A DNA stretch of 32,000 bases from Gammaproteobacteria bacterium (GTDB lineage: Bacteria; Pseudomonadota; Gammaproteobacteria; JBIOEC01). The stretch covers positions 1,110,001 through 1,142,000 of the forward strand of contig OZ257143.1 of the NCBI GenBank assembly GCA_965279305.1, given 5' to 3'. The translations under genes were made by a program, and so were the position numbers. The notes under the pieces are model-generated. The model worked only from the letters and a program-made list of their open reading frames with translations. It searched no databases and had not been told where the DNA came from. This document shows positions 8,587 through 32,000 of the stretch, one piece after another; position 1 is the stretch's first letter, and each line of letters begins with the position of its first letter.

Positions 8587-9735
8587 CTAAAAGCTTAAAG
8601 GGAATTCTGCTAGATTGTAAACTGATATTTTGTCACTCAATGGAAAGTTAGTGCTCTTCGGAACAATAACATAAAGATGATCTAGCTTGAGATCATGTAT
8701 TGCGATGTTCATTGACTTAGTTATTTTAGGATTACCTGTATATTTAAATTCAAAGCCCAAACGTTTTCCGTTTTTTATAATGAATAAATCAAGTTCTGCT
8801 TGATTGGAAGTAGCCCAAAAATAACAATCTTCGGGATCGCATTGTAAACGTTGAATAATTTCTTCCATCGCAAAGCCTTCCCAGGAAGCCCCCATTTTTG
8901 GATGTTTTTGTAGTTCTTCAAAGCTTGATAAGCCTAATAATGCATGTAGTAAACCTGAATCCTTAAAATAAGTTTTGCTCGATTTAACTTGTCGTTTTCC
9001 AATATTTTCAAACCAGGGTTTCAGTCTACGCATCATAAAGGTACCTTCTAAAATATCCATATATTTTTGAATGGTTTTATGAGTAAGCCCCATACTAGAA
9101 GCAATATCTGAAGCATTAAAAATTTGCCCATGATAATGAGAAATCATTTGCCAAAAACGTCGCAAAGTAGCTGGTTCAATATTAAATCCTAGAGTAGCTA
9201 AATCTCTCTCTAAAAATGTTTTAATGTATTCTTGGCGCCAACGGTAGCTTGCGCTGTCAGCAGATGCTAAAAATGATCGAGGAAAGCCTCCTCTCCACCA
9301 ACGCTCATTTAAATGATCTTGTCCTATTTCAAAGAGGGCAAAAGGAGGGAGTTCAATGTAGGCAATACGGCCTGCTAATGTTTCGCTGGATTGTTGTATC
9401 AGGTCTCTAGAAGCACTTCCCAATATTAGGTATTTCTGTGTGCTATTGTCGACTAGGTATCTTAATACCGGGAATAGATTAGGGCGTCGCTGTATCTCAT
9501 CAATAACAATATATCCTTCTAAGCTATGTAGGGTTAACTGTGCTTCAGCAAGTCGAGCTTCATCTATTTCACTTTCTAGGTCAAAATAGTGGATAGGGCT
9601 ATCAAGTGATTCACTATACTGCTTAGCGAGTGTAGATTTGCCACATTGTCGCGCGCCGAGAATGGCTACAATCGGGCATATCTTAAATAATTCATGTATT
9701 TCGTCTAAATAGTGTTGTCGAGTTATGATTGGCAT
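8587..9735 (-). CDS. AAA+ ATPase of the AAA_14/DUF4143 type (function unknown)
   Basis: 382 aa. It has a Walker A motif (ILGARQCGKSTL) and a Walker B-like motif (YIVIDEIQ). The overall layout matches the widespread 'ATP-binding protein' family with a C-terminal DUF4143-like region. It lies tail-to-tail with dnaE with only 11 bp between the stops. Confidence 0.75.
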   Translation of the reverse strand: MPIITRQHYLDEIHELFKICPIVAILGARQCGKSTLAKQYSESLDSPIHYFDLESEIDEARLAEAQLTLHSLEGYIVIDEIQRRPNLFPVLRYLVDNSTQKYLILGSASRDLIQQSSETLAGRIAYIELPPFALFEIGQDHLNERWWRGGFPRSFLASADSASYRWRQEYIKTFLERDLATLGFNIEPATLRRFWQMISHYHGQIFNASDIASSMGLTHKTIQKYMDILEGTFMMRRLKPWFENIGKRQVKSSKTYFKDSGLLHALLGLSSFEELQKHPKMGASWEGFAMEEIIQRLQCDPEDCYFWATSNQAELDLFIIKNGKRLGFEFKYTGNPKITKSMNIAIHDLKLDHLYVIVPKSTNFPLSDKISVYNLAEFPLSF

Positions 9736-15786: not shown

Positions 15787-16784
15787 GCATTTTAGTAGTG
15801 GCTGAACATCAATCTTCAGGATTGCATTTGGGTACTTATGCTGCAGTGAGTGCTGCACGTCAACTTAGCAATGATATTCATATTTTAATTGCAGGCTATC
15901 AATGCGAAAAATCAGTGGCGCAAGCCTCAAAAATTAAAGATATTAAAAAAGTATATTATGCAGATGATATGGTTTATGAACATATGTTTGCTGAAACATT
16001 ATCACCATTAATAAAAGAACTGGCTTCTACGTATACGCATATCATTTCACCTTCTAGTTCATTAGGTCGTAATGTGTTGCCTCGATTAGCCGGAGAGTTG
16101 AATGTTGAATGTTTGACAGATGTGGTTCAGATTGTTTCTAACGATACTTTTGTCAGACCCGTTTTTTCAGGAAATGCTTTGGTTACGGTTCAAATGTTTG
16201 ATCCTGTTAAATTGTTAACAGTGAGAATGTCTGCTTTTGATTCTGCTGTTTTAACTCAAGAATCAGCACCTGTTTTTCGTGTCGAAAAAATTAACAATGA
16301 TATTCGAAAATTTTCAGAGATCGTTAATTGGGTAAGTGAAGAATCATTTTATTCGAATCGACCTGATCTGGTTAAAGCTCGCGTGGTTATTTCAGCAGGA
16401 AGAGCCGTTCAATCCAGCGATAGCTTTAGTGTGTTAGAAAATATTGCCATCAAATTAAATGCGGCCATTGGAGCTTCTAAACCTGCAGTAGATGCTGGTT
16501 TGATTTCACATAATCGATTAGTCGGACAAACCGGAAAAATGGTAGCTCCTGAATTATATATTGCGGTAGGAATTTCTGGTGCATCACAACATATCGCTGG
16601 AATGAAAGAGAGTAAAGTGATTGTGGCGATTAACAAAGATAAAAACGCACCCATTTTTGAAATTGCTGATTATGGATTAGTAGGTGATCTGTTTGATATT
16701 TTGCCTGAGCTAGATAAAGCATTAGAAAAATTATATTTAGAAAAGTTGTCTCTAATAGAAATGGAAAAATCTTATGAATATTAA
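15783..16784 (+). CDS. etfA: Electron transfer flavoprotein alpha subunit
   Basis: 333 aa. The start MSILVVAEH overlaps the etfB stop as ATGA. It has the C-terminal FAD-binding signature [49 protein letters not shown]. Confidence 0.93.
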
Positions 16785-20309: not shown

Positions 20310-20474
20310 ATTTATCTTCTTTTCTATGATCATTTTTTGCACAATCAAAAGGTGGTCGTAGGTCAAACCCTCGTAGTTAACCCGCTAAATACTGCCAAAA
20401 TGGCCAGCCTGCGCTATACTACCAAAGTTAGAGTTGTTAATAGGTATTTTAACTAATGATCGGAGCGCAATATC

Positions 20475-21620
20475 GTGGATGCTATGTCAACACCAATACA
20501 ACCCGTAGCGAATCTCGCCCAGAGTGCCGTTGCGTATTATTGGGAACAAGACGATTTACATTTTCTTCCTGAACAACGGAAGGCAGTGGAGAAGTATGCA
20601 CAAGATAAGAGTGTTCAAGTAGCCGCGGAATATACCGATAAGCTAGATAAAAAGCGTAAAGGGTTTCCTGAGCTAGAAGCGGCGATAAAGTATTGCCAAC
20701 AACATAATTTACGTTTGTTAATAGCGAGACTGCATAATTTAACAACGTCAGAAGATTTTACAGATTTATTGCTGAAAAATAAGGTTAATTTTCTTTGCTT
20801 AGATAGACCGACGATTAACCCTTATACATTACAAGCTGTAGTAGAAGACATTAATCAGCGTCGCAAAGAACATAGCGATCGCATTAAGCATGGGTTAGAG
20901 TCCAGCACGGCTCATTTAGGTAACCCAAATGCGTTAAAAGAAATTATTAGGGTTAATAAGCCCAAAACTGAAAACGCTGTGATGTTCGCGCTTTTATTAT
21001 TACCGATTATTGCCAACTATCGCAGACAAGGTTTCTCTCAGCGTAAGATGGTAGATACATTGAATGCAGAAGGCTTCCCAGCTCCCGAAGGCGGAAAATG
21101 GGTATTAAGCCAGCTGCAGAAGGTATTGGATAGAATAGACCTAAACGTGATTGCCTTGAATAGTATTAGTACTATCCAAGACTGTAAGGCTAAGGGGCTT
21201 GATGAGGAACATACTATCAAGACTTTGAATGCATTAAGCGTTAGAGCCCCTCAAAGAGGGGGTTGGACACGTGAAGGATTGGCAGACGTTCGTGAACGTT
21301 TGGAGCTAATCGAAGAAATTGGCGTATTTAACGATTTTGTGCTAAACATATATCCCCATATGGTAAATTGGGTGAAACAAGGGCTTACCGATGCTGATAT
21401 CGCTAAGTCATTGAATGAACAGAATATTTCGGTTCCTGAGCGTATTTTATGGGAAATTGCCCAAGAGAAGCCTGAAGGAGCAGAGTTAGAGTCGGCTGAC
21501 ACGGGTTGGCAGGCAGAGAGAGTAAAGGTGGCCCGCAGTTTATCTGCTCGCCGAGCACAAGATATTAGACACTTTGTGAATCCACACACATACGAAGTGG
21601 CGCAAGGTATGATAAAATAG
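20475..21620 (+). CDS. Serine-recombinase (resolvase)-like protein lacking the catalytic residues, with a triplicated C-terminal DNA-binding-type motif; function unknown
   Basis: 381 aa. Residues ~18-135 follow the resolvase catalytic-domain pattern, but the YxRxS site reads AYYWEQ and the DRLxR site reads HNLTT. Three ungapped 27-aa repeats occur at aa 183-209, 238-264 and 300-326 (G-x9-LN-x6-P-x4-W). The start is GTG 20475 or ATG 20484. It is the first gene of the co-directional icmW-dotA string. Confidence 0.6.
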   Translation: MDAMSTPIQPVANLAQSAVAYYWEQDDLHFLPEQRKAVEKYAQDKSVQVAAEYTDKLDKKRKGFPELEAAIKYCQQHNLRLLIARLHNLTTSEDFTDLLLKNKVNFLCLDRPTINPYTLQAVVEDINQRRKEHSDRIKHGLESSTAHLGNPNALKEIIRVNKPKTENAVMFALLLLPIIANYRRQGFSQRKMVDTLNAEGFPAPEGGKWVLSQLQKVLDRIDLNVIALNSISTIQDCKAKGLDEEHTIKTLNALSVRAPQRGGWTREGLADVRERLELIEEIGVFNDFVLNIYPHMVNWVKQGLTDADIAKSLNEQNISVPERILWEIAQEKPEGAELESADTGWQAERVKVARSLSARRAQDIRHFVNPHTYEVAQGMIK

Positions 21621-21638
21621 AGATAAGAGGATAGTGTT

Positions 21639-21935
21639 ATGGCAATGTTAGACGATAGAAATTTAGGCAATATGCTATATGCTGCTCAAACAGCAGTAAA
21701 GACAGCTGTTGCTCCAAGCAAATTAGGCTTGCAAGCTGATGGCCTAGAAGCATTAATGCTTAACGTTACCCAATTGGGTAAAATGTTAAGTGATACATTT
21801 GCCCAAAGTATAGGCTTGGTTCCCATTGCCAAGGCTACAGCCCCCGTTCCTGCAGTCGCTCCAGCTACCCCTGCTATGGCTAAACAGCCTTCGGCAGCTC
21901 CTGGCCCAGCGTCTGCGGCACCAAGCCCAGGTTAA
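21639..21935 (+). CDS. Small hypothetical protein with an Ala/Pro-rich C-terminal tail
   Basis: 98 aa. A good RBS (AAGAGGA) lies about 7 nt upstream of the ATG. The stop is 9 nt before the icmW start. The N-terminal ~60 aa look helical. The C-terminal ~35 aa are low complexity (ATAPVPAVAPATPAMAKQPSAAPGPASAAPSPG). I recall no homologue. Confidence 0.5.
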   Translation: MAMLDDRNLGNMLYAAQTAVKTAVAPSKLGLQADGLEALMLNVTQLGKMLSDTFAQSIGLVPIAKATAPVPAVAPATPAMAKQPSAAPGPASAAPSPG

Positions 21936-21944
21936 GGCTAGCTT

Positions 21945-22388
21945 ATGCTGGACCTTAACCCGGATGCAGTTCGAAGTTATTGGCAAGAAAAGCATGACTA
22001 CGCGCTGTACCGCATTATCGAAGCCATGGAAGGTGTAGAAGGGTGGGTTACCGATGGTAACCCTGAAGTTGAAGCCGCTCTTAGCCATCTTATTAAAGCG
22101 CTAGATAAAGTTCAAAATTACGAACTGCATAATGAAGAAGCCCTTATCCAAATATTAAACACTCTAAAGGCTGCTAGAGCTTTTCGTTTACTTCAATTTT
22201 TTGATTCTTTAAAACCAGGCTCTGCTTCTAAGCTGCTGATTTTTGCTGAAGTGGCGAGTAACGAACCTGATGATATGCCTGGATTTTTTCTTAAACGTAA
22301 TTTAGTGTTTGAACGTTTACAATTAATGGGGCGTATTTTTGCTCCTGATCGAGTTGAATTAGTTCTTAAGGCTATTGATCGCGAATAA
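21945..22388 (+). CDS. icmW: Dot/Icm type IVB secretion adaptor/chaperone IcmW
   Basis: 147 aa. The sequence PGSASKLLIFAEVASNEPDDMPGFFLKRNLVFERLQLMGRIF closely parallels L. pneumophila IcmW (~151 aa) as recalled (PGSAS...GFFLKRNIVFERL). It is in a Dot/Icm context. Confidence 0.88.
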   Translation: MLDLNPDAVRSYWQEKHDYALYRIIEAMEGVEGWVTDGNPEVEAALSHLIKALDKVQNYELHNEEALIQILNTLKAARAFRLLQFFDSLKPGSASKLLIFAEVASNEPDDMPGFFLKRNLVFERLQLMGRIFAPDRVELVLKAIDRE

Positions 22389-22456
22389 GGTCATAGGTCA
22401 TCCTCTCTACCATTCCGCTTTTTTTACACCAGTTGGTTTTAGGTCAACAAGCTATT

Positions 22457-22485
22457 TTGTTATAGTAGCACTATACTTATATAAG
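22457..22485 (+). promoter_or_regulatory. Candidate sigma70 promoter (TTGTTA-N17-TATAAG) ahead of the 263-aa ORF/icmX/icmV/dotA
   Basis: TTGTTA at 22457-22462 and TATAAG at 22480-22485 have 17-nt spacing, inside the only sizeable gap (136 bp) in the + strand Dot/Icm string. This is a sequence-only prediction in an AT-rich region. Confidence 0.25.
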
Positions 22486-22524
22486 TATTATTTATCATAT
22501 TATAGATAGAGGTAATGTAATTTT

Positions 22525-23316
22525 ATGAAAGCTAATCGAACCGCTATTTCAGCTGCACTTTTAACCTTAGGAATGATGAGTGCCGCTACCTCTGGAGTTG
22601 CCATAGCTGCTGCTCCTTCAGTTTCTGCTGATATTCCTCCTGCTAGCCAAGAACAACAAGCAGAAGGGTATGATGGCAAACGTGATAAGAATGTTTATTA
22701 CGGAACTCAATCTAATACTACCAATACGCATTCCGGTGGCGCTGATGCTACTGTGATGATGCAGCAAGATAATACTATTAATCCAAGCACCGGTAATGAA
22801 GTGGTTTCTTCTACCGATGTGATAGTGGAAGAAAAAGGCCCTATTCAAACCACTTATCCAAGCTTTAGTGATGAAGAAATAGATAAATTATTTAATGTTA
22901 TTCAACCTGTAGAAGAAGCACCTGGTGTGCCTCCTTCTGAAGAAACAGCGCCTGTTGATCCGACTTCAGATGTTTATCGTCATGTTCCTGTGAATCCCGT
23001 CTATACTTACGGGAAGGATGAAGAAGGACAGGGCGTATGTGCGGGTACAGAAGAATTCTGTGCTAAGTCAGAAGAATTATGGAAAAACTTTGAAGACAAA
23101 GTCGCTAACGATGAGCCTATTACTCATACTGAAGGCGAAAACAAAGGTCAATTAATTCTGCCCGAATCTTACAAAGAAAGCGTAACGAATATGCCTAATG
23201 TAAAAGAAGACTGTCCTCCTGGATACGAATCTTATCCTGCAGGTAATCCCGATGTTGGTGTATCAGACCCACATTGCGGTAAACTAGAAGGAAACGTTTA
23301 TACTGTTAAACGTTAA
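22525..23316 (+). CDS. Secreted acidic protein of unknown function, encoded between icmW and icmX
   Basis: 263 aa. It has a signal peptide (MKANRTAISAALLTLGMMSAATSGVAIAAAPSVSA), an acidic Pro/Glu/Thr-rich mature region and four Cys in the C-terminal third (GVCAGTEEFCAK ... EDCPPGY ... DPHCGK). An RBS-like AGAGGT lies 12 nt upstream. Confidence 0.6.
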   Translation: MKANRTAISAALLTLGMMSAATSGVAIAAAPSVSADIPPASQEQQAEGYDGKRDKNVYYGTQSNTTNTHSGGADATVMMQQDNTINPSTGNEVVSSTDVIVEEKGPIQTTYPSFSDEEIDKLFNVIQPVEEAPGVPPSEETAPVDPTSDVYRHVPVNPVYTYGKDEEGQGVCAGTEEFCAKSEELWKNFEDKVANDEPITHTEGENKGQLILPESYKESVTNMPNVKEDCPPGYESYPAGNPDVGVSDPHCGKLEGNVYTVKR

Positions 23317-23336
23317 CATCAAGGGAGTGAGTGTTT

Positions 23337-24380
23337 ATGAGAAAGCCATGGAAACAGACAGTACAGGCGATCCTTTTAGCAACTAGTTCTTTAGTCATGA
23401 GCCAAGCCTTTGCGGCTAGTGATGAGCTGGTGAGTAATCTTTTCCAAGATCTCAAAAACTACATGGGTTTAATGCAAGGCGACGAACGCGAATATCAAAA
23501 TCGTTTGCGCGCTGTGCCACCTCCTTATTATGCCGTGAGTGCTACTAGTGGTAACGCCATTGTGGCGGCTGAAAATACGCAAGGCATGACAGAATTACAA
23601 AACTTTTTAATGTCACGTTTGATTGATTGGAATATGTTGCAAACCAGTCAAGAAGTGTCTAACTCCCGTTTAGTAGAACAACATTTATTAGGTTTTTGCT
23701 CTCAAGAAGAATCTGCTGCCAATTTTTGCGATGTGGGATTAACCATATCGGAAGGTGGTGCGGCTGATTTATTAGTCGATACTTTATTAAATAATGAAAC
23801 GCTGAGTGAAAATCAACAATTGTCAGTATGGGCATTTATTGATAATTTAACCAATCCTAGTCCTATTCCATTACCCGATAATACATTTACCTCTGAAGGA
23901 TTTACTAATGCGGCTAAAGCAACATTAGATGGATCTCCTATGGCTGAGATCCATGATTCTGTCAAAATTCGTCCGTTATCCGCGGAAGGGGTTCGTACCT
24001 TAGCGGCTCGTTATAAGCAAATGGCTTTTCTTTCTACCGCACAAAATGCGTTAAATCAAATTGCGGCTGACAGACATGTAATAAAGGGATTAGGCCAAGA
24101 GATGGGTATGGATGCGCCCGATGCCAGTATTTTTGCTGCTATGAAATTTGAATCGAACCGTCGTTATGGCGATGAAAATTGGCATAACGAAATGTATCAA
24201 GCGCCTGAAGCGGCATTGTTACGTGAAATAGCGAATATGCAAGCATTTCAATTAGCGTTAGACTTTAAGCGTTATGAGCAAGATTTAGTATTAACCACAT
24301 TATTAGCGGCGCAAGTATCTAGTAATGCGCAAGGTTTAGCAGCTGGAGAAATGGCAGCAACGGTTAATGTTCCACAATAG
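23337..24380 (+). CDS. icmX: Probable IcmX (periplasmic Dot/Icm component)
   Basis: About 347 aa with a signal peptide (MRKPWKQTVQAILLATSSLVMSQAFA). It lies in the icmW/icmV/dotA group, where icmX is the only expected secreted component. ATG 23337 is preferred because GGGAG at 23323-23327 is 9 nt upstream; the track start is GTG 23331. The identity rests on context and size, since I cannot recall the IcmX sequence. Confidence 0.55.
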   Translation: MRKPWKQTVQAILLATSSLVMSQAFAASDELVSNLFQDLKNYMGLMQGDEREYQNRLRAVPPPYYAVSATSGNAIVAAENTQGMTELQNFLMSRLIDWNMLQTSQEVSNSRLVEQHLLGFCSQEESAANFCDVGLTISEGGAADLLVDTLLNNETLSENQQLSVWAFIDNLTNPSPIPLPDNTFTSEGFTNAAKATLDGSPMAEIHDSVKIRPLSAEGVRTLAARYKQMAFLSTAQNALNQIAADRHVIKGLGQEMGMDAPDASIFAAMKFESNRRYGDENWHNEMYQAPEAALLREIANMQAFQLALDFKRYEQDLVLTTLLAAQVSSNAQGLAAGEMAATVNVPQ

Positions 24381-24394
24381 TTAAGGAATAAAAT

Positions 24395-24862
24395 ATGTTT
24401 GATCGTACAAAACGGCTAAGTGGTCGAATAAAAAGTGGTGTGGCTCGTGGAATGGGCTTTTCTTTTTTATACGATACTGGCACCATGATGAAACGTGTGG
24501 TCATGGGTTTTTTAGATTTTCCAAAAGCTGAAAAATCAGAAAGCTTTGCGCAAGCGGTTAAACGAATGAAATTAACTGAACAAGAGGTTGAACATCGCCG
24601 TAAGAATTTTTTAACACAATTTTTTATGTTTCTAATAGCCGCTTTTCTTTTATTTTCATATGCCGCATATGTTCTATTTCAAGGAAACTGGGCTACCGGT
24701 ATTGTCGGTATTTTGATGTCAGCTTTATTAGGTGCTCATGCACTACGTGCGCATTTTTGGGCCTTTCAAATCAAGCATCGTAAATTAGGCTGCACGTTAG
24801 AAGAATGGTGGAACGATAAAACCGTGCAAGAAGAAAAAGGGAAAGCCCCAAAAAAATCATAA
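24395..24862 (+). CDS. icmV: Dot/Icm inner-membrane protein IcmV
   Basis: 155 aa with two TM helices. The sequence ...RAHFWAFQIKHRKLGCTLEEWW matches the recalled L. pneumophila IcmV C-terminal signature (HFWYFQIK.RKLGC..EW). It is adjacent to dotA. Confidence 0.85.
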   Translation: MFDRTKRLSGRIKSGVARGMGFSFLYDTGTMMKRVVMGFLDFPKAEKSESFAQAVKRMKLTEQEVEHRRKNFLTQFFMFLIAAFLLFSYAAYVLFQGNWATGIVGILMSALLGAHALRAHFWAFQIKHRKLGCTLEEWWNDKTVQEEKGKAPKKS

Positions 24863-24870
24863 AAGATATA

Positions 24871-27189
24871 ATGTTAAAAGGTAATCATATGTTTCGTAGC
24901 CTACTCCTTGTTTTTGCATTAATGTTTTCAACCACTTTCGCTATTACCTATAGTGCTCCTAGTGCTGCGGCTACAGATGTAGGTGATATTTTTACACCGA
25001 CTGAAGGTGATTATTCTATTTATATTCTTTCTAAAATTTTTGGTGATATTGAACAAAGCGTATTGCCCGGTGAAGCGGCTGCGAGTGGTCCTCAATTACT
25101 GGGTAATGTTTTTCGTGTATTTAACGTTGTTGCATTGTCTCTAGGTGTGTTGATGGTAATTTATACCATTGTACTTGCCGTATTAAACACCGCTCATGCC
25201 GGTAAAATGATGGGTGAAAAAATGTCATCCATGTGGGTGCCGGTACGAATTGCTTTTGCTATCGCTATGTTAATTCCTAAAGCGAATGGTTATTGTTTAG
25301 CGCAAGTCGCCGTGATGTGGTTAGTCGTACAAGGTATTGGTGCAGCCGATAGTTTATGGAATACCGCACTCGATTATTTTGAAGCGGGTGGTGGATTGGG
25401 CGGGCAACAAATTCCCGGTACAGGCGAAGAGAGCATACAAGCCAGTTTAGATGCGGTGTATTTAAGTCTTTTGGAAGATACTTTACGTGCGGCCACCTGT
25501 GTTGCTGCTCACAATGCGACTCAATCAACTATTCAAGAGCCTTACACCATATACACTCAAGTGAGTGCCGATCAGCATTATTTAAATTTTGGACGTCAAT
25601 CACCTGCAGGTACTGTCTCTAGTGGAGGCGCACAAGAAGGTTATGAATGTGGACGTATTACTTTTGATTATTTTACGTCTAGCTATTTTGGTGGAGATGG
25701 CCAAGAAGCTAAAGATATGGCTAATATTGCGAACGCTACGCAAATGAGCATTGTCTATCAATTTGCTGGAAAATTATCAGTGATTGGTGTTGGAATTGCT
25801 GACGAAAATGTTGATCTCGCTTATTTACAGAGCGAATTTAATATTATGAAAAATGCTTCTATGAGTTATGTCACCGATATGACGAGTAATCAACAAGCAT
25901 TTATGATGCCTGAAGGTCCAAATGATTTAATTAGTGTAATGCGTGGACAAGGCTGGATTACAGCAGGCAATTACTATCAATTATTAACTCAATTTCAAGG
26001 CAGTTATAACTTTACACCAGAAAATAGTGTACCAGAAGTATCACCTCGTGAAACTCAAGCTTCTTTTGCCGCTTATCAAAGCCAGATAGAAGATGCAGAA
26101 TATATTTATGGTAATGATCCTAATGGTTTTATGAAATGGGAAAGTCGAAATTATTCTACTGAAGTGTCGCCTTCTCAACAAGCGCGTGAGGATATTCAAA
26201 AAGCATTTGAATCTGAAGCAGAAATTTTTGAGGCCATTGGTTTTACCAACGCCGTTATTAAATATGCCGGTAATTTTATGGATATAGTGTCGGGAGAATC
26301 TCAATCGGCTGATCCTATTTTGAATATTGCGCATTACGGACAATATTTAATGAAGGTGAGTATTGGTGTGATGTTAGGAATGGCTTATCTTATTCCTGGT
26401 ATTGGTTTGATTTTAGGTGCTATACCTTTTGTGGCTTTAGGTGCTAGCTATATGTCTGCTTTGATATTTGCTGTGATGCCATTAGTGATGTCTATGATGG
26501 GCTTGATGTATCTTCAAGGGGCTATGTTAGGTGTGTACTTACCATTTGTGCCGTTTATTATTTTTGCGATCGGTGCATTGGGCTGGATTATGGCGGTGAT
26601 TGAATCGATGGTAGCAGCACCATTAGTGGCCTTGGGTATGACGTTACCCGAAGGTCATGAAATTTATGGGCGAGCAGAGCCTGCGTATATGATGTTAATT
26701 AATTTATTTTTACGACCCTCACTGATGATATTAGGATTTGTGTCGGCATTATTGGTGACATGGTTGGCGGTAGATTTAATTAATTTAAGTTTTTACACGG
26801 CACTTCGTTATGGTGGAATAGCGCCTGATCCTATTGCGGGTCCTTTTGTGATTATTCTTTTATATATGGGCGTATTAGTAGCGTTAGTTACTAAAGTATT
26901 TAATTTAATTAATGTGGTGCCAGACAAAGTATTACGCTGGATTGGTGATAACACTCAAGCCGTGGGTGGTGCAGAAGACGTGCTCAGCCCTGCAAAACAA
27001 GGTACACAAGAAGGCGCGCAAGCTACAGGTCAAATGGGCAAACAAGGTGGAACGATGGGTCAGAAATCCAGTGGACCTGTCTTGGAAGCTCAGCATAGAA
27101 ATAGCAGCACATCTTCAGAAGAACCCGAGAAAAAAGAAGAGCAAGCGCAAAGTATTCGTTCGAATACGCGTCCCAACGAACGCGAGTAA
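24871..27189 (+). CDS. dotA: Dot/Icm polytopic inner-membrane protein DotA
   Basis: 772 aa. The N-terminal region (LGNVFRVFNVVALSLGVLMVIYTIVLAVLNTAHAGKMMGEKMSSMWVPVRIAFAIAMLIPKANGYCLAQVAVMWLVVQGIGAADSLW) closely parallels L. pneumophila DotA as recalled. It has a large periplasmic domain and then multiple C-terminal TM helices. ATG 24889 (MFRSLLLVF..., AAAGG 7 nt upstream) is an alternative start. Confidence 0.92.
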   Translation: MLKGNHMFRSLLLVFALMFSTTFAITYSAPSAAATDVGDIFTPTEGDYSIYILSKIFGDIEQSVLPGEAAASGPQLLGNVFRVFNVVALSLGVLMVIYTIVLAVLNTAHAGKMMGEKMSSMWVPVRIAFAIAMLIPKANGYCLAQVAVMWLVVQGIGAADSLWNTALDYFEAGGGLGGQQIPGTGEESIQASLDAVYLSLLEDTLRAATCVAAHNATQSTIQEPYTIYTQVSADQHYLNFGRQSPAGTVSSGGAQEGYECGRITFDYFTSSYFGGDGQEAKDMANIANATQMSIVYQFAGKLSVIGVGIADENVDLAYLQSEFNIMKNASMSYVTDMTSNQQAFMMPEGPNDLISVMRGQGWITAGNYYQLLTQFQGSYNFTPENSVPEVSPRETQASFAAYQSQIEDAEYIYGNDPNGFMKWESRNYSTEVSPSQQAREDIQKAFESEAEIFEAIGFTNAVIKYAGNFMDIVSGESQSADPILNIAHYGQYLMKVSIGVMLGMAYLIPGIGLILGAIPFVALGASYMSALIFAVMPLVMSMMGLMYLQGAMLGVYLPFVPFIIFAIGALGWIMAVIESMVAAPLVALGMTLPEGHEIYGRAEPAYMMLINLFLRPSLMILGFVSALLVTWLAVDLINLSFYTALRYGGIAPDPIAGPFVIILLYMGVLVALVTKVFNLINVVPDKVLRWIGDNTQAVGGAEDVLSPAKQGTQEGAQATGQMGKQGGTMGQKSSGPVLEAQHRNSSTSSEEPEKKEEQAQSIRSNTRPNERE

Positions 27190-27219
27190 TATTAATATAG
27201 AATTTATTGTGGCATCTCT

Positions 27220-27380
27220 GTCATCCCGCGTTTTTTCCCTTGCAGAATTTTGAAAAGAAAGATGTGCTTTCAGGGAAAAAATGACGGGATCCGGTCGAGA
27301 GATTTCTCGACCAGACCCCAGCATTTTTCTCCTGAGAAAAGTTTTTTCTTTTACGGATCGTTGAGGAGAAAAACGTGGGG
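27220..27380. terminator. Cluster of three inverted repeats in the dotA/dotL convergent spacer (possible bidirectional terminators or REP-like elements)
   Basis: (1) ttttttccct (27231-27240) pairs with agggaaaaaa (27272-27281), with outer atcccg/cgggat arms. (2) A perfect hairpin ggtcgaga-gatt-tctcgacc lies at 27293-27312. (3) tttttctcc (27324-27332) pairs with ggagaaaaa (27365-27373), with outer cccca/tgggg arms (27316-27320 / 27376-27380). No hairpin has a canonical adjacent U-tract. Confidence 0.35.
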
Positions 27381-27397
27381 TGACAACTAAAACACTA

Positions 27398-29770
27398 TTA
27401 TTGGTTGGGGTTTTCTAACGCTGCTGTGACACTATTAATAGCCTCAACTACTTCTGCTACATTAGGTTTAATCATGCTAGGTGGGTAATTGGTAGCAGTT
27501 CTAATGTCATTGATCAATTTATTAATAGCCTGATGAGAATCTCCTCTGGATTTTCCTAACAAGCGTTCAATCTTTTCTAAATTTCGTTGCACTTCTTCTT
27601 TATCTAATAAAGGAGTGCTAAAGAAATTAGAGTTAAGCAAACTGAATGGATCAAACTCTTCTAAATCATCAGGTAGCGCATAAGAAGGTTGGGTGAAAAT
27701 ATCCATACCACCGCTGATCCCGGTTTGATTAGACGTTCCTTCAAGCTCTTCACCTTCGACTTCAACAGGAAGCGTATGCTCTTGTTTAAAGAATTGCCCA
27801 AATACTGATAAAGTGCGCTCTAAAGGAGGAAGTTTTTTACCTGTTTTAAGCGCTTTGCCAATAAAAGTCAGATCCGAGGGCATTTGCGCGGCTTCTTTTT
27901 GTAATAACTCAGGGTGTTCTAATGCGTTCGAAAACTGAGCATAACGATCATAAAGTGTAATCAGTTCTTTTTCATTCGGTTTAGATACTTTAAGGAACTG
28001 GTTCAGTTTCATGTATTTAACAGGAGGAGGGTTACTGAAGAACATACGTGCGCGAACAATTTGAGATTTGAAGAAAATATGCGCTTCACCTTCACGTTGA
28101 TCTTTTAAATCTAAAATATCAATACGAGCACGCTTCTCTAATTGTGCGCTACGGTTGTCTAAATAAGTATTGGTCACGCTGCTGGTATTGCTTTGGAAGC
28201 CGCTGGTATGCGTTACATACGCTTCTGCAGCGGTTTTTTGGAAGAACTCCCAGGTTTCCGTCGGATCTTCCAGTTTCATACAGATTTTAATATTGGTGTT
28301 AGCACCGATGGATGCGGCTTCTTCTTTAGATACTTTTTGGAAAGCGGGTAAATCTTGTCCGGCGAAAATAGCAGAGAAGCCTAAAGAACGTGCCTGTGCA
28401 GGAACAATGGCGAAGCCGTTTACTGCGTAGTAACCATACTCATCCAGAATACACATAAAAGGAGTAGGGGAGTTGGTGGGTTTGCGTTCTACTAAGGCTT
28501 TATATTCACCTTCTACTTCTTCACCTAAACCGGATGCCATCATCGCTTTTAAGGAAGCTACAATAATTTTTCCTAAGTTGGAAAGTTCTTCGGGTGCTTT
28601 TTCTAAAGCAGGAAGTAATACCACCAAAATGCGTCTATTTAAAACCACATCTCGGAAATCTACTTCGGCCAATTCGGTACGTAAAATATGACCATAAGTA
28701 TCGGCTAATGAGGTAAATGCTCGAGTGAGCTGCATACTCACGAAACCAAACTGCTCTAAGGTTTCAGAGCTTTGTTTGCCTTTTTTGTTTCTATCAAAAC
28801 CTGGTAAGGTATTTAAGAAGTTTTCTAAAGGTTGCATCACCACATCAGGCACGTCATCTAAAGGAATAAGTTTTTCATCAGGGCCTATGCCTACTGGGAA
28901 TTTACGATCGATAACAATGGTTTCTAAATGAGGTAAAAAGAAATAATGACGAACCGTATGCACGTCTAACAAAATATGACCTTCGTCGCGCATAAAAACT
29001 AATAGTTTCATTAATGCTTCAACAAACGAAATAGCACGGCCTTTCCACATATCGCCATCAGGGCTTTGTGAAGCTTGATCCATTAAGCTCACTACTAATT
29101 GCGATAACATACTGGAAGAGCCAGTAGCAAAAGGGTTTAATGTATTAGAGATACGGGTTTTTTGTGGGCCTACGATATCTCTAGCGCCAGTCATAAAGTT
29201 AATCAGTAATAAATCGTCTTCTCGTCCCATTTTTCGGGTGAGAGAGAATATTTTGGCGAATAAGGAGTTATCACCTTTACCATCTACGTAGATGAGTCCG
29301 CTTCCTTGTACCAATGCATTATAAGAGAGTGATACTAATGTTTCGGTTTTACCACTACCGGTAGAGCCGAACATTAATACGTGAGTTCTCATATCATCGT
29401 TGGTAAACCATAATTCTTCTAAGCTAGAGAGTTCATTTCCAAAATAAACAATACCGCCTGCTTTACGAGGTTTGTTAGAGCCGGGGCTGGGATCGTTATA
29501 ATCTAAACGGCCAGAACTTTTGGGCATACGAAAGGGAAGTTTGGTGCCTTGGGTAACGCAAATGGTAAAGATAAATAAACTAAACACTAAAGCAAAATCA
29601 CCTAAACCGGGTAACACAATAATAAAAACGCCTACACATATTAATGTTAGTGCGCAAGCGGTAGGATTTTTAAATGCGTCAGCAAACCGTTGGATAAGCG
29701 TGCGCGTATCCCGAATAATTTCTTGGCCTTGTTGTTCATGCCGGCGTTCTAATCCGCGTAGTTTTGCCAT
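27398..29770 (-). CDS. dotL: Type IVB coupling protein DotL (IcmO)
   Basis: 790 aa. It has N-terminal TM helices, Walker A (FGSTGSGKTE) and Walker B (FMCILDEYGYY). The N-terminus ...EIIRDTRT... and the overall length match L. pneumophila DotL/IcmO (~783 aa). It follows dotM. Confidence 0.92.
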   Translation of the reverse strand: MAKLRGLERRHEQQGQEIIRDTRTLIQRFADAFKNPTACALTLICVGVFIIVLPGLGDFALVFSLFIFTICVTQGTKLPFRMPKSSGRLDYNDPSPGSNKPRKAGGIVYFGNELSSLEELWFTNDDMRTHVLMFGSTGSGKTETLVSLSYNALVQGSGLIYVDGKGDNSLFAKIFSLTRKMGREDDLLLINFMTGARDIVGPQKTRISNTLNPFATGSSSMLSQLVVSLMDQASQSPDGDMWKGRAISFVEALMKLLVFMRDEGHILLDVHTVRHYFFLPHLETIVIDRKFPVGIGPDEKLIPLDDVPDVVMQPLENFLNTLPGFDRNKKGKQSSETLEQFGFVSMQLTRAFTSLADTYGHILRTELAEVDFRDVVLNRRILVVLLPALEKAPEELSNLGKIIVASLKAMMASGLGEEVEGEYKALVERKPTNSPTPFMCILDEYGYYAVNGFAIVPAQARSLGFSAIFAGQDLPAFQKVSKEEAASIGANTNIKICMKLEDPTETWEFFQKTAAEAYVTHTSGFQSNTSSVTNTYLDNRSAQLEKRARIDILDLKDQREGEAHIFFKSQIVRARMFFSNPPPVKYMKLNQFLKVSKPNEKELITLYDRYAQFSNALEHPELLQKEAAQMPSDLTFIGKALKTGKKLPPLERTLSVFGQFFKQEHTLPVEVEGEELEGTSNQTGISGGMDIFTQPSYALPDDLEEFDPFSLLNSNFFSTPLLDKEEVQRNLEKIERLLGKSRGDSHQAINKLINDIRTATNYPPSMIKPNVAEVVEAINSVTAALENPNQ

Positions 29771-29780
29771 AGATATCCAT

Positions 29781-30938
29781 TTATGCTTTGGTTTCAGGTT
29801 CGTCTATCGGTTGATAAATAACGATGGCGAGTGCTTTTTCTAAACCTACAACAGCCTCATGTACCATAGGCACAGAAAAACGGCGTTTTAATTCTCTTTC
29901 TACTACCCAATGTGCGAATACGCCACCCACTTCAGAAAATGCAGTTTGACGTCCCACATTATTTAAGGTGTACCATAATTTTCTATCAAGTGGTTTTAAC
30001 CATAAAAAATCCGAGCTGCTTAATACACCATCGGTACGAGCGAATTCTAGTATAGAGGCCATCATGGTGCGAACATAAGCATGTTGTTTGGTAATGGCAA
30101 CGACTCTTTTATCATCACGATATTTAGCTAGTACTTTTTTAACTTCAGAAGCTACGGCGCCAAAATCAGGTTTACCATTAATACTGCTAGCGGAAACTGC
30201 ATTTAAAATACCAGCAGAAGTGCTGCGATCATGATTGGCTCTAGCAATAAAGGCGGCAAATAATGTTTTGGTATAAGGATTAAGTTTATCTATTCCTTCC
30301 CAAGGAGCGCCTAGTTGCTCTGCAAATACACGCTCAGCTTTATCGCGAATCACTTCGGCGCGAATTTTCATTCCTCTTTGAATGAGTTTTTCACCTACGC
30401 CTTGTTCTCTGACTTCGCGCAGCAATTGGTATTTTCTGGCAAATTCCATAGGGTTCATGGACATAGCCCATGGCCCTTGATCAATCGGTGTGTTAATTAA
30501 GTCTTGTTTACTGGTAGGTAAAATTTGTGGCCATAAATCTTTTTGGCTGTCGTATAACGTTTTAAGATTGTAAATATGACGATAATGAGTGGCAAAAGGT
30601 CCAAAATAAATCACAGCGGCAAGGGCTACGCAAATAACGGCAAAAGGAATGGAAACAAATTTTCCAGTGGTGCTCATTAGTAATTTAATGGTAGGAAAAT
30701 CGACTTGCTCAGGATGAGCAATGTAAAATTCAACGATAGGGATCAATGCTTGTGGTTCACTACTATATAGAGTAGCGAATTGAAGTTCCCATAATTTGAC
30801 GGTACATATGCCCATTACAAGATAATCTTTAAACACAAACCAAATAATAAGTGCAATAGCAATAACGGCGACAGATCCCCATAAAAAATCTAGGGAGCCT
30901 GTCTGATCCTGCGCGGGTGGTGCGTTTTGTCCGGCCAT
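29781..30938 (-). CDS. dotM: Dot/Icm coupling-complex inner-membrane protein DotM (IcmP)
   Basis: 385 aa. It has a Gln/Pro-rich N-terminus and then TM helices (LWGSVAVIAIALIIWFVF...). The size and the position immediately upstream of dotL match icmP-icmO. The sequence resembles recalled DotM (IKLWE... motif). Confidence 0.8.
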   Translation of the reverse strand: MAGQNAPPAQDQTGSLDFLWGSVAVIAIALIIWFVFKDYLVMGICTVKLWELQFATLYSSEPQALIPIVEFYIAHPEQVDFPTIKLLMSTTGKFVSIPFAVICVALAAVIYFGPFATHYRHIYNLKTLYDSQKDLWPQILPTSKQDLINTPIDQGPWAMSMNPMEFARKYQLLREVREQGVGEKLIQRGMKIRAEVIRDKAERVFAEQLGAPWEGIDKLNPYTKTLFAAFIARANHDRSTSAGILNAVSASSINGKPDFGAVASEVKKVLAKYRDDKRVVAITKQHAYVRTMMASILEFARTDGVLSSSDFLWLKPLDRKLWYTLNNVGRQTAFSEVGGVFAHWVVERELKRRFSVPMVHEAVVGLEKALAIVIYQPIDEPETKA

Positions 30939-30946
30939 AGTATGCT

Positions 30947-31285
30947 CTAATCGTACATTAAGTCATCAAGGGCTATCGTATGTTTATCCGCTGCTGCTTC
31001 TATTAACTCATAAATAATTTCGGTTGCACATAATAATCGAAAAGAATCGGGTACTGTATCATCAAATTGGCAAATCACACCGAGTCTTGCATCGCTATCG
31101 GGTGGAAACTGAACACCTAAACCATAACTCAGGCAGAAAGCAGATAATTGATCTGCACGTCTCATAATAGCAGGTAATAGCCCGCGTTCAGCAAAAACAT
31201 CTTCTAGGGGGAGCACCTTGCCATTAAGTGTGAAATTAATTTTTAATTCTTCGGCAATGAAGGCGAGCTTAGAGCTTAGTTTCAT
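30947..31285 (-). CDS. icmS: Dot/Icm adaptor/chaperone IcmS
   Basis: 112 aa. The sequence LEDVFAERGLLPAIMRRADQLSAFCLSYGLG...FRLLCATEIIYELI...LDDLMYD parallels recalled L. pneumophila IcmS (114 aa, FDEVFSETGLLPAI..., ending ...LMYD). Confidence 0.88.
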   Translation of the reverse strand: MKLSSKLAFIAEELKINFTLNGKVLPLEDVFAERGLLPAIMRRADQLSAFCLSYGLGVQFPPDSDARLGVICQFDDTVPDSFRLLCATEIIYELIEAAADKHTIALDDLMYD

Positions 31286-31316
31286 AGCAAAATGTTATTC
31301 TATTTATGAAAGTAGT

Positions 31317-31345
31317 ACTGTAACGGATATTACTTCTCTAATCAA
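31317..31345 (-). promoter_or_regulatory. Candidate promoter for icmS-dotM-dotL (TTGATT-N17-TACAGT on the - strand)
   Basis: On the - strand, TTGATT (complement of 31340-31345) and TACAGT (complement of 31317-31322) have 17-nt spacing, about 30 nt upstream of the icmS ATG. This is a sequence-only prediction. Confidence 0.25.
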
Positions 31346-31358
31346 GATAAATTCCCTG

Positions 31359-31399
31359 TAGACTATACTTCTATCTTAGGTTATATTAATCCTCTAAGA
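31359..31399 (+). promoter_or_regulatory. Candidate dotD promoter (TAGACT-N17-TATATT) with the -10 bracketed by a 6-bp inverted repeat
   Basis: TAGACT lies at 31359-31364 and TATATT at 31382-31387. The inverted repeat tcttag (31374-31379) / ctaaga (31394-31399) flanks the -10 and could be an operator. This is a sequence-only prediction. Confidence 0.25.
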
Positions 31400-31423
31400 A
31401 ACAGACCTACGGATGGGCAAAAA

Positions 31424-31903
31424 ATGCGCACTCTCTTAATTTCTTTACTCTGTCCCTTACTCTGTATTAGCCTTATCGGATGTAGGCATAATTTTAATGA
31501 GCCGGAAGATCCACCAGAACTCCCTGATCTTAACAAAGCTGATTTATCTGAAGCAGCAATTGCTGCTACCGATTCTCTAGAGCAATTAGCTGCTATGGAT
31601 GCAGAACGTCAAGTAGTTAGAGTAGAACCGCAAACTCAAGAACAATTAGATTACCACATGCCTCAATTAGCCAGTGTAGATTGGACGGGGCCTGCAGAAC
31701 CTTTAGTTCGTCGTTTGGCGCAAGCAGTAAATTACCATGTGAGAGTCATTGGTAAAGCGCCACCGCATGTTATTATTGTGAGTATCAGTAAACGTGATGT
31801 ACCGGTGGGTGAATTGTTGCGTGATGTAGCGTTGCAAATTCATCGTGATGCTGATTTAGTTGTATTTCCTCAATCTAAACTTATTGAAATACACTATCAC
31901 TAA
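31424..31903 (+). CDS. dotD: Dot/Icm outer-membrane lipoprotein DotD
   Basis: 159 aa. It has a lipoprotein signal with the lipobox LIGC (Cys20). The C-terminal domain (VDWTGPAEPLVRRLAQAVNYHVRVIGKAPPHVIIVSISKRDVPVGELLRDVALQI) fits the DotD secretin-N0-like domain. The size is close to L. pneumophila DotD (163 aa), and a probable dotC follows. Confidence 0.82.
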   Translation: MRTLLISLLCPLLCISLIGCRHNFNEPEDPPELPDLNKADLSEAAIAATDSLEQLAAMDAERQVVRVEPQTQEQLDYHMPQLASVDWTGPAEPLVRRLAQAVNYHVRVIGKAPPHVIIVSISKRDVPVGELLRDVALQIHRDADLVVFPQSKLIEIHYH

Positions 31904-31923
31904 GTACTTATAAAGCGAACGAT

Positions 31924-32000
31924 ATGCCGCTAACAAAGATAAAAAAAGTTCAAGCCCATTTATCGCCTAATATATCAGTGGCTGGCGTGTTATTAGTTAG
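31924..32000 (+). CDS. dotC: 5' end of an ORF running off the window, probably dotC
   Basis: The ATG at 31924 opens a frame (MPLTKIKKVQAHLSPNISVAGVLLV...) with no stop up to the window end. The hydrophobic stretch is consistent with a signal peptide. The identity is inferred only from the usual dotD-dotC-dotB order. Confidence 0.35.
   Translation, partial: MPLTKIKKVQAHLSPNISVAGVLLV

Follow-up and report, generated by a model that had tools for sequence, protein, structure and literature searches.

Does an unfamiliar order of Dot/Icm genes mark a secretion locus that has been remodelled, or one that has kept an older arrangement? The question is raised by a 32,000-nucleotide stretch of a gammaproteobacterial contig (OZ257143.1, assembly GCA_965279305.1, forward-strand positions 1,110,001 to 1,142,000; hereafter the window, with coordinates counted from its first letter), in which positions 20475-32000 encode components of a Dot/Icm secretion system of type IVB (T4BSS). 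A preliminary description had taken the order to be undescribed and the locus to be remodelled. Our comparisons lead to a different answer. We are confident that the region makes up the left third of one contiguous chromosomal Dot/Icm T4BSS locus, that its source is a Legionellales-like bacterium of the Berkiella type, uncultured and deep-branching, and that the gene order is normal for this clade, more likely retained from a plasmid-like arrangement than remodelled.

The layout itself was described correctly. From left to right, the forward strand carries a recombinase-like gene, a small open reading frame (ORF), icmW, a secreted ORF, an icmX-like gene, icmV and dotA; the reverse strand follows with dotL, dotM and icmS, and dotD and dotC lie on the forward strand again. 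As had been reported, icmW, the icmX-like gene, icmV and dotA are co-directional in the order W-X-V-A, dotA converges on dotL (208 bp from stop to stop), icmS is joined to dotM-dotL on the same strand (gaps of 8 bp between icmS and dotM and 10 bp between dotM and dotL), and dotD diverges from icmS across 138 bp.

The seven components named in the preliminary description, icmW, icmV, dotA, dotL, dotM, icmS and dotD, were all recovered at the places given for them by Pfam, NCBIfam or PDB matches. The coupling-complex adaptor gene icmW (21945-22388, +) encodes a protein that matches Pfam PF23130 at 157 bits (E=3e-46) and the NCBIfam equivalog IcmW_IVB at 133.9 bits (cut-off 100), and the product of icmV (24395-24862, +), the TraX equivalent, scores 100.5 bits with NCBIfam IcmV_IVB (cut-off 100, E=9e-29). 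DotA, a member of the TraY family (24871-27189, +), matches TIGR04346 (DotA_TraY) at 350 bits and the DotA of PDB 9ngy at E=7e-72; with NCBIfam T4SS_DotA it scores 395 bits, under the cut-off of 500. The type IV coupling ATPase DotL/IcmO (27398-29770, -) matches IcmO/DotL of PDB 6sz9 over residues 4-767 (E=2e-293), and its homologues carry the source name IcmO/DotL. DotM/IcmP (29781-30938, -) reaches 417.7 bits with NCBIfam DotM_IcmP_IVB (cut-off 230) and E=2e-59 with Pfam DotM_C, and IcmS (30947-31285, -) reaches 57 bits with Pfam T4bSS_IcmS (cut-off 27, E=3e-15). The TraH-type lipoprotein DotD (31424-31903, +) matches Pfam DotD at 95 bits (E=4e-27) and NCBIfam T4SS_lipo_DotD at 122 bits, under its cut-off of 140. 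The window thus combines a DotL-type coupling ATPase with a long C-terminal extension, DotM, and the effector-adaptor proteins IcmS and IcmW, both of which pass their family cut-offs.

The last gene of the window, proposed as a probable dotC, is cut by the window edge after its first 25 codons (31924-32000, +). These are near-identical to the 5' end of a 284-amino-acid (aa) PF16932 (T4SS_TraI) gene on a contig of the same species, L095 (locus numbers of this kind refer to our set of mapped loci), which bears out the assignment. L095, whose DotD is 100% identical, runs on through dotD-dotC-dotB-x-x-icmT-dotI-dotH-dotG-dotF-dotE-dotP-dotN-dotO. Since it continues the dotD of the window through dotO, we regard the whole as a single contiguous locus; among the core-complex genes dotC, dotD, dotH, dotG and dotF and the ATPase genes dotB and dotO, dotD is in the window and the others are on L095.

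To place this layout among others, Dot/Icm genes were mapped by tblastn onto 80 GTDB loci and several metagenome contigs. Three layouts were found. In the Legionella type, confirmed on L. pneumophila locus L023, the order is icmT-S-R-Q-dotM-L-K-J-I-H-G-F-E-P-N; region II of L. pneumophila reads icmT-S-R-Q-P-O-N-M-L-K-E-G-C-D-J-B, and dotD-C-B and dotA-icmV-icmW/X occupy a separate region, as consecutive GenBank protein numbers indicate. L. pneumophila shares the protein families of the window, including the coupling-complex and DotA-IcmX parts, and its DotL is 60% identical. It differs in that icmR, icmQ, dotK and dotJ stand among these genes or follow them, that the genes are split into two regions, and that DotA and IcmX are longer (1048 and ~466 aa). 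The DotA of the window, at 772 aa, aligns with the 1048-aa protein of 9ngy in three separate stretches and is therefore probably part-shortened.

In the Coxiellaceae type, icmW lies on the opposite strand, icmV-dotA is followed by dotB-C-D on the opposite strand, and icmT-icmS-(icmQ)-dotM-dotL-dotK-dotI-dotH lies on the same strand as icmV-dotA. These loci resemble the window in being single, in having dotD divergent from the unit that bears icmS, and in having icmV and dotA co-directional; unlike in the window, dotA is upstream of dotB rather than convergent on dotL, icmT precedes icmS, and icmW is divergent from icmV. The claim that the order is unlike those of L. pneumophila and C. burnetii therefore holds for the former by L023 and the separate dotDCB and dotA/icmV/icmW region, and for the latter as judged by the Coxiellaceae-type proxies L009, L016, L027 and L058.

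The third layout is that of the window, and here the claim of an undescribed order fails. Read on the complementary strand, it comprises dotG-H-I-icmT-dotB-C-D leftward, icmS-dotM-dotL rightward, and dotA-icmV-icmX-icmW with the recombinase-like gene leftward. It was found in the GTDB genomes L002, L006, L007, L019 and L045, and the compact side with dotD divergent from icmS-dotM-dotL is common to L001, L004, L005 and L008. The same order occurs in at least nine GTDB species represented by metagenome-assembled genomes (MAGs) and in three metagenome contigs: L082, of the same species, which includes the liuB-liuC flank; L081, with a DotL 80% identical; and L087, flanked by liuB-liuC-HMGL-acs. 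The claim of an undescribed or poorly described lineage fared better, as no close named relative was found. Among 5.8 billion proteins, the closest DotL, from a Logan assembly, is 99% identical, a few metagenome proteins are 77-80% identical, and all others are at most 64% identical. In a GTDB scan with DotL as query and one genome per species, the best DotL was 62% identical among the matches listed. Because its DotL relatives are this distant, and the closer ones are metagenome contigs only, the organism is uncultured and deep-branching.

An essentially identical arrangement also exists in a described reference lineage, that of the amoeba symbiont Berkiella. The Berkiella genome paper (PMC9803151) lists, in its Table S3, icmW-icmV-dotA-(2-4 genes)-dotL-dotM-icmS-dotD-dotC-dotB-(icmT)-dotI-dotH-dotG-dotF. 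In Ca. Berkiella cookevillensis CC99, the protein-encoding gene (PEG) numbers are 308 for IcmW, 309 for IcmV, 310/312 for DotA, 317 for DotL, 318 for DotM, 319 for IcmS, 320 for DotD, 322 for DotC, 323 for DotB, 324 for DotI, 325 for DotH, 326 for DotG and 327 for DotF, and Ca. B. aquae HT99 is numbered likewise, with IcmT between DotB and DotI (PMC9803151). The window together with L095 shows the same blocks, icmW..icmV-dotA, dotL-dotM-icmS and dotD-C-B-(icmT)-dotI-H-G-F, by PEG numbers from a table that does not give strands. Like the window, Berkiella has a single locus and lacks icmQ and icmR, and its guanine-plus-cytosine (GC) content of 38-39% compares with ~40% here. There are differences as well: in Berkiella no annotated gene lies between icmW and icmV, where the window has the secreted ORF and the icmX/TraW-like gene; 2-4 genes separate dotA from dotL, which abut here; and HT99 has two dotA copies where the window has one.

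The Legionella- and Coxiella-type marker genes icmQ and dotK/icmN are likewise absent. In the window, icmS is followed by dotM with neither icmR nor icmQ in between, and tblastn queries with the IcmQ and DotK of L. pneumophila detected neither gene in the window-type loci or in L095, the loci being the span covered. This absence fits the published gain of icmQ and dotK after Berkiella diverged (PMC8896642). With these data, the deep Berkiella-like branch of Dot/Icm bacteria gains an uncultured lineage, whose arrangement was itself already known.

Was this arrangement derived, or has it been kept? We took the annotated plasmid pC21-3 as comparator for the IncI plasmids (R64-type, MPF-I). On one strand it carries traE-F-H-I-J-(K)-(L)-M-N-O-P-Q-R-S-T-U-V-W-X-Y, excA and trbA-B-C. 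Its traW-traX-traY correspond to icmX-icmV-dotA and are likewise co-directional and adjacent; trbA and trbC, corresponding to dotM and dotL, come next in cyclic order; and traH-I-J-K-M-N-O-P-Q-R-T-U correspond to dotD-C-B-icmT-dotI-H-G-F-E-P-N-O. A convergence of trbABC on traY in IncI was considered and rejected, as these genes are co-directional in pC21-3. Compared with IncI, the trb block alone is inverted here and icmS and icmW, adaptors that IncI plasmids lack, have been added, whereas the DNA-processing genes with the relaxase and origin of transfer (oriT; nikAB) and the exclusion and pilus genes are missing and the system would export protein rather than DNA. No relaxase family occurs among the Pfam matches of the scanned window ORFs.

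A neighbour-joining tree of DotL rooted on plasmid TrbC recovered the clade of the window at 97% bootstrap, united Legionella and the Coxiellaceae-type loci in 62% of replicates, and placed the window-type loci as basal and paraphyletic. Because the IncI block order is kept by this branch in many independent assemblies and window-type loci are basal in the tree, we favor a retained plasmid-like order. The window layout is probably closer to the ancestral one than the Legionella or Coxiellaceae orders, a view that we hold with moderate confidence. The term remodelled is thus misplaced for a locus that keeps the IncI block order, and the orders that look rearranged are those of Legionella and Coxiella. 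If the IncI-like order is ancestral, the layouts of these well-known genera would be the rearranged ones, and the additions of icmS, icmW, icmQ and dotK could be ordered in time. Such an ordering would provide background for the evolution of host-injection machines and would leave the known working of these machines unchanged.

The most serious alternative is a derived order, produced by a single rearrangement at the base of the Berkiella-like clade, with a likeness to IncI that is coincidental. It carries the remodelling view of the preliminary description over from one organism to a whole clade. T4BSS gene order is labile, with a further arrangement in Piscirickettsia, and an IncI-like order may have arisen by convergence; window-type loci also vary downstream of dotL, and the monophyly of the Legionella and Coxiella types stands at 62%. 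Nevertheless, a derived order would have to account for three blocks in IncI cyclic order, including the long dotD-C-B-icmT-dotI-H-G-F-E-P-N-O run, as well as for the paraphyly of window-type loci at the base of the rooted tree and for an absence of icmQ and dotK that matches their published gain after the Berkiella divergence. We therefore consider a derived order unlikely, but worth keeping in mind. The Piscirickettsia arrangement is a fourth order, found in a Dot/Icm-like set on the 251-kb P. salmonis plasmid NZ_CP039041.1 (L093, 48897-78702) whose DotL is 62% identical; it reads dotH, dotG, dotD, dotC, dotB, icmT, dotL, dotM, dotN, icmW, dotO, dotA, dotI.

Besides this lability of gene order, several further points weigh against a retained, Berkiella-type locus. 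The DotL tree is built on a single protein, its base is weak (62%), and its outgroup branch is long. C. burnetii is represented by proxies, the Coxiellaceae MAGs L009, L013, L016, L027 and L058. A GTDB genome closer than 62% in DotL may lie beyond the matches listed. The Berkiella match is drawn from gene numbers in a supplementary table without strands, and since icmW and icmV adjoin and 2-4 genes split dotA from dotL in Berkiella, it holds at the level of blocks, not gene for gene. Finally, membership in the Berkiella lineage is suggested by the shared layout and the shared absences.

A second alternative sees in the locus a mobile island or integrative and conjugative element of recent acquisition, inserted and excised by the recombinase at its edge. 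The serine-recombinase-like gene does sit exactly at the boundary with core metabolism, and the flanking gene varies between relatives: the window has liuC at this place, and L081 has acs. The genes upstream comprise liu-type leucine catabolism, a branched-chain keto-acid dehydrogenase, dnaE and lipid A genes. In relatives, an HMG-CoA (3-hydroxy-3-methylglutaryl-CoA) lyase gene (HMGL) and an acetoacetyl-CoA-synthetase-like gene (acs) lie between liuC and the locus (L087 2621-5418; L081 16850-17948); because relatives have both and the window has only a 165-bp gap (20310-20474) between liuC and the locus, HMGL and acs were probably deleted in the lineage of the window, and this deletion explains the difference in flanks. 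The liu/acs flank is kept by two of the three contigs, including L087 at ~60% DotL identity, and, with the liu flank conserved across the clade, this is an old chromosomal position.

Other marks of a genomic island, namely an attachment site, an active integrase, direct repeats and deviant composition, were not found. No tRNA gene occurs in the window, the locus has no significant flanking repeats, direct or inverted, and GC is uniform across the boundary (0.39-0.46 in the locus, 0.36-0.46 in the flanks), which argues against a recent island. The earlier observation that no tRNA, integrase or repeat is visible was accordingly right about the tRNA and the repeats, but it overlooked that the ORF at 20475-21620 is serine-recombinase-like, albeit without catalytic residues: the nucleophilic Ser and the catalytic Asp and Arg residues are gone in 47 of 47 aligned family members. 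Considering also that the scanned ORFs include no relaxase and that IcmS and IcmW are adaptors for effector recruitment rather than parts for DNA transfer, we regard a recent mobile island as very improbable. That the order is an assembly or binning chimera has next to no likelihood: the source is probably a metagenome assembly and the SRR28248352 assembly breaks in the icmS-dotD gap, but independent contigs obtained from different samples and projects (L081, L087, L006, L007, L019 and L045) run across each of the two junctions, dotA-dotL and icmS-dotD. The sequence 5' of dotD differs between L095 (135-220) and the window (31286-31370), and this difference together with the break in SRR28248352 suggests strain variation or an assembly break at this site.

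With the chromosomal, plasmid-like locus as the preferred interpretation, gene spacing allows a tentative outline of its transcription. Gaps inside the co-directional runs are 8-18 bp, except for 136 bp after icmW, and from these spacings we infer four transcription units. The first would comprise the recombinase-like gene, the small ORF and icmW, and the second the secreted ORF, icmX, icmV and dotA. The third, icmS-dotM-dotL, would meet the second head-on across a hairpin at 27285-27320, which has a 16-bp stem with T runs on both strands, is the best terminator-like site in the region, and is likely a bidirectional terminator between dotA and dotL. The fourth would start with dotD and dotC, run onwards and be divergent from the third; the gap between icmS and dotD (31286-31423) is a putative divergent promoter region, with promoter-like hexamers on both strands that are matches to consensus alone. 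A scan of the intergenic gaps gave no convincing match to the Legionella PmrA box (TTAATATT in tandem), and Rfam returned no RNA match for the window. Judging by their L. pneumophila homologues, DotL, DotM, IcmS and IcmW would form the effector-recruiting coupling complex, DotA and IcmX the central channel or gate, and DotC and DotD the beginning of the outer-membrane core.

The gene that opens the first of these units (20475-21620, +; 381 aa) is, together with the motif described below, the one lead here that may be new. Its product scores 28.4 bits with Pfam Recombinase (cut-off 21.1), with weak Resolvase and HTH_62 matches. The AlphaFold2 (AF2) model has a predicted local distance difference test (pLDDT) score of 91, and in a Foldseek search its N-terminal domain matched best the catalytic domains of the TP901-1 integrase and of a resolvase (3bvp, 3guv; probability 1.00, E ~1.5e-3). 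There are 273 homologues at E up to 0.001. Among 1.84 billion representatives, only 65 clusters (50% identity) reach E 1e-30, and ordinary serine recombinases of ~220 aa come next in the profile search, at E ~1e-25. The protein shares with small serine recombinases (resolvase/invertase) a resolvase-like N-terminal fold, and with the ~220-aa relatives a C-terminal helix-turn-helix, SQRxM..LN..G..AP.GG.W.L.QLQ.VL. It differs from small serine recombinases in having lost YxRVST and DRLxR, in a ~160-aa helical C-terminal extension, and in occupying a fixed chromosomal slot beside icmW or map rather than a mobile element. Direct alignment with relatives that carry YYRVST and IAKLDRLARN showed both catalytic motifs to be gone in the family. 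Across 47 sequences, R and S are not conserved at columns 23 and 25, nor are D, R and R at columns 84-88, whereas the DNA-binding motif SQRxMVxxLNxEGFxAPEGGxWVLSQLQKVLxR is largely invariant.

Within a clade whose DotL proteins are ~60% identical, the gene stays beside icmW, and its spacing from icmW differs between lineages. The protein is 70% identical in L081 and 45% identical in L006 and L087, beside icmW in each; in L081 its identity to the window exceeds that of DotA (50%) and IcmV (46%). In the window, L081 and L006, the genes from it up to icmW are separated from their downstream neighbours by 9-37 bp, and in L087 it adjoins icmW at 400 bp. In the Coxiellaceae-type genomes L083, L085 and L090, it lies next to map, 5-7 kb from icmW, and L091 has the gene without icmW within 10 kb. 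Literature searches found no description of the family, and a search of the Berkiella supplement for genes adjoining icmW found nothing.

A repeated motif accompanies the gene. GGTCRTAGGTCA has two exact matches in the window, one in the gap between liuC and the recombinase-like gene (GGTCGTAGGTCA, 20354-20365, +) and one just 3' of icmW (22389-22400, +); by our own calculation, ~0.008 exact matches would be expected by chance. A looser third copy lies 46 bp beyond the icmW copy (22435-22446), and the two copies in this 136-bp gap are followed by a TATAGT -10-like box. In a shuffle test allowing two mismatches, three motifs were found against 1.8 expected, which is not significant. The orthologous gap of L081 (14677-14873) has two TAGGTCA copies and then the same TATAGT box, and in the distant genome L083 the interval from icmW to icmV (16517-16654) holds two copies. 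An exact GGTCGTAGGTCA in L081, 5' of the recombinase-like gene, was rejected as a conserved operator and not counted, as it lies within the acs coding sequence, where it encodes LVVGQ. The TAGGTCA/GGTCRTAGGTCA repeats may be a binding site for a regulator and are a candidate for one. It is conceivable, if rather doubtful, that the dead recombinase-like protein is a domesticated DNA-binding factor that has become a conserved part of the Dot/Icm locus of this deep clade, and that it could regulate the icmW and icmX-icmV-dotA units through these motifs. If so, it would represent a type of T4BSS regulator for which there is no description from Legionella or Coxiella.

The icmX assignment required indirect evidence. 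The 349-aa protein (23331-24380, +) has no direct family-model match; like the small ORF and the secreted ORF, it gave no NCBIfam or Pfam match at E up to 10. PF28212 ('TraW-like') does occur in six of its 11 homologues, and its profile matches a PF28212-bearing protein of L087 (7477-8394) with an hhalign probability of 99.4, so that the name icmX/TraW-like is reasonable; the gene also lies directly 5' of icmV-dotA, the slot of traW before traX-traY. The earlier proposal of a probable icmX can stand on this basis, although, compared directly with IncI TraW, the protein gives a weak match (hhalign probability 29%) and sequence and profile searches against PDB did not find the L. pneumophila IcmX of 9ngy. 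The AF2 model of the protein was rejected as too poor (pLDDT 53). While a published analysis treated icmX as Legionella-specific (PMC8896642), the TraW-like (PF28212) gene at the traW slot in this deep clade suggests that icmX may be ancestral, but diverged beyond orthology clustering.

Two further ORFs complete the region. Of the three extra ORFs said to be interleaved with the Dot/Icm genes, only that at 22525-23316 (+) is so placed; the other two lie 5' of icmW. It encodes a predicted secreted protein of 263 aa with a signal-like N terminus and is 38% identical to a 308-aa protein in the same slot of L081. The small ORF of 98 aa with an Ala/Pro-rich tail (21639-21935, +) is weakly supported as a gene, and a 92-aa ORF in the same slot of L081 has little sequence similarity to it. 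Gene content varies at other points among relatives: some carry two tandem dotA-like genes (L006 12363-17317; HT99 PEG1757 and PEG1758), of which the window has one, and an extra gene of ~470 aa lies between icmX and icmV in L081 (11165-12571), L087 (8398-9816) and L006 (17778-19238), but not in the window. Far upstream of the locus, right after dnaE and beside a MipA gene, the opposite strand carries an AAA_14/DUF4143 ATPase gene (8587-9735).

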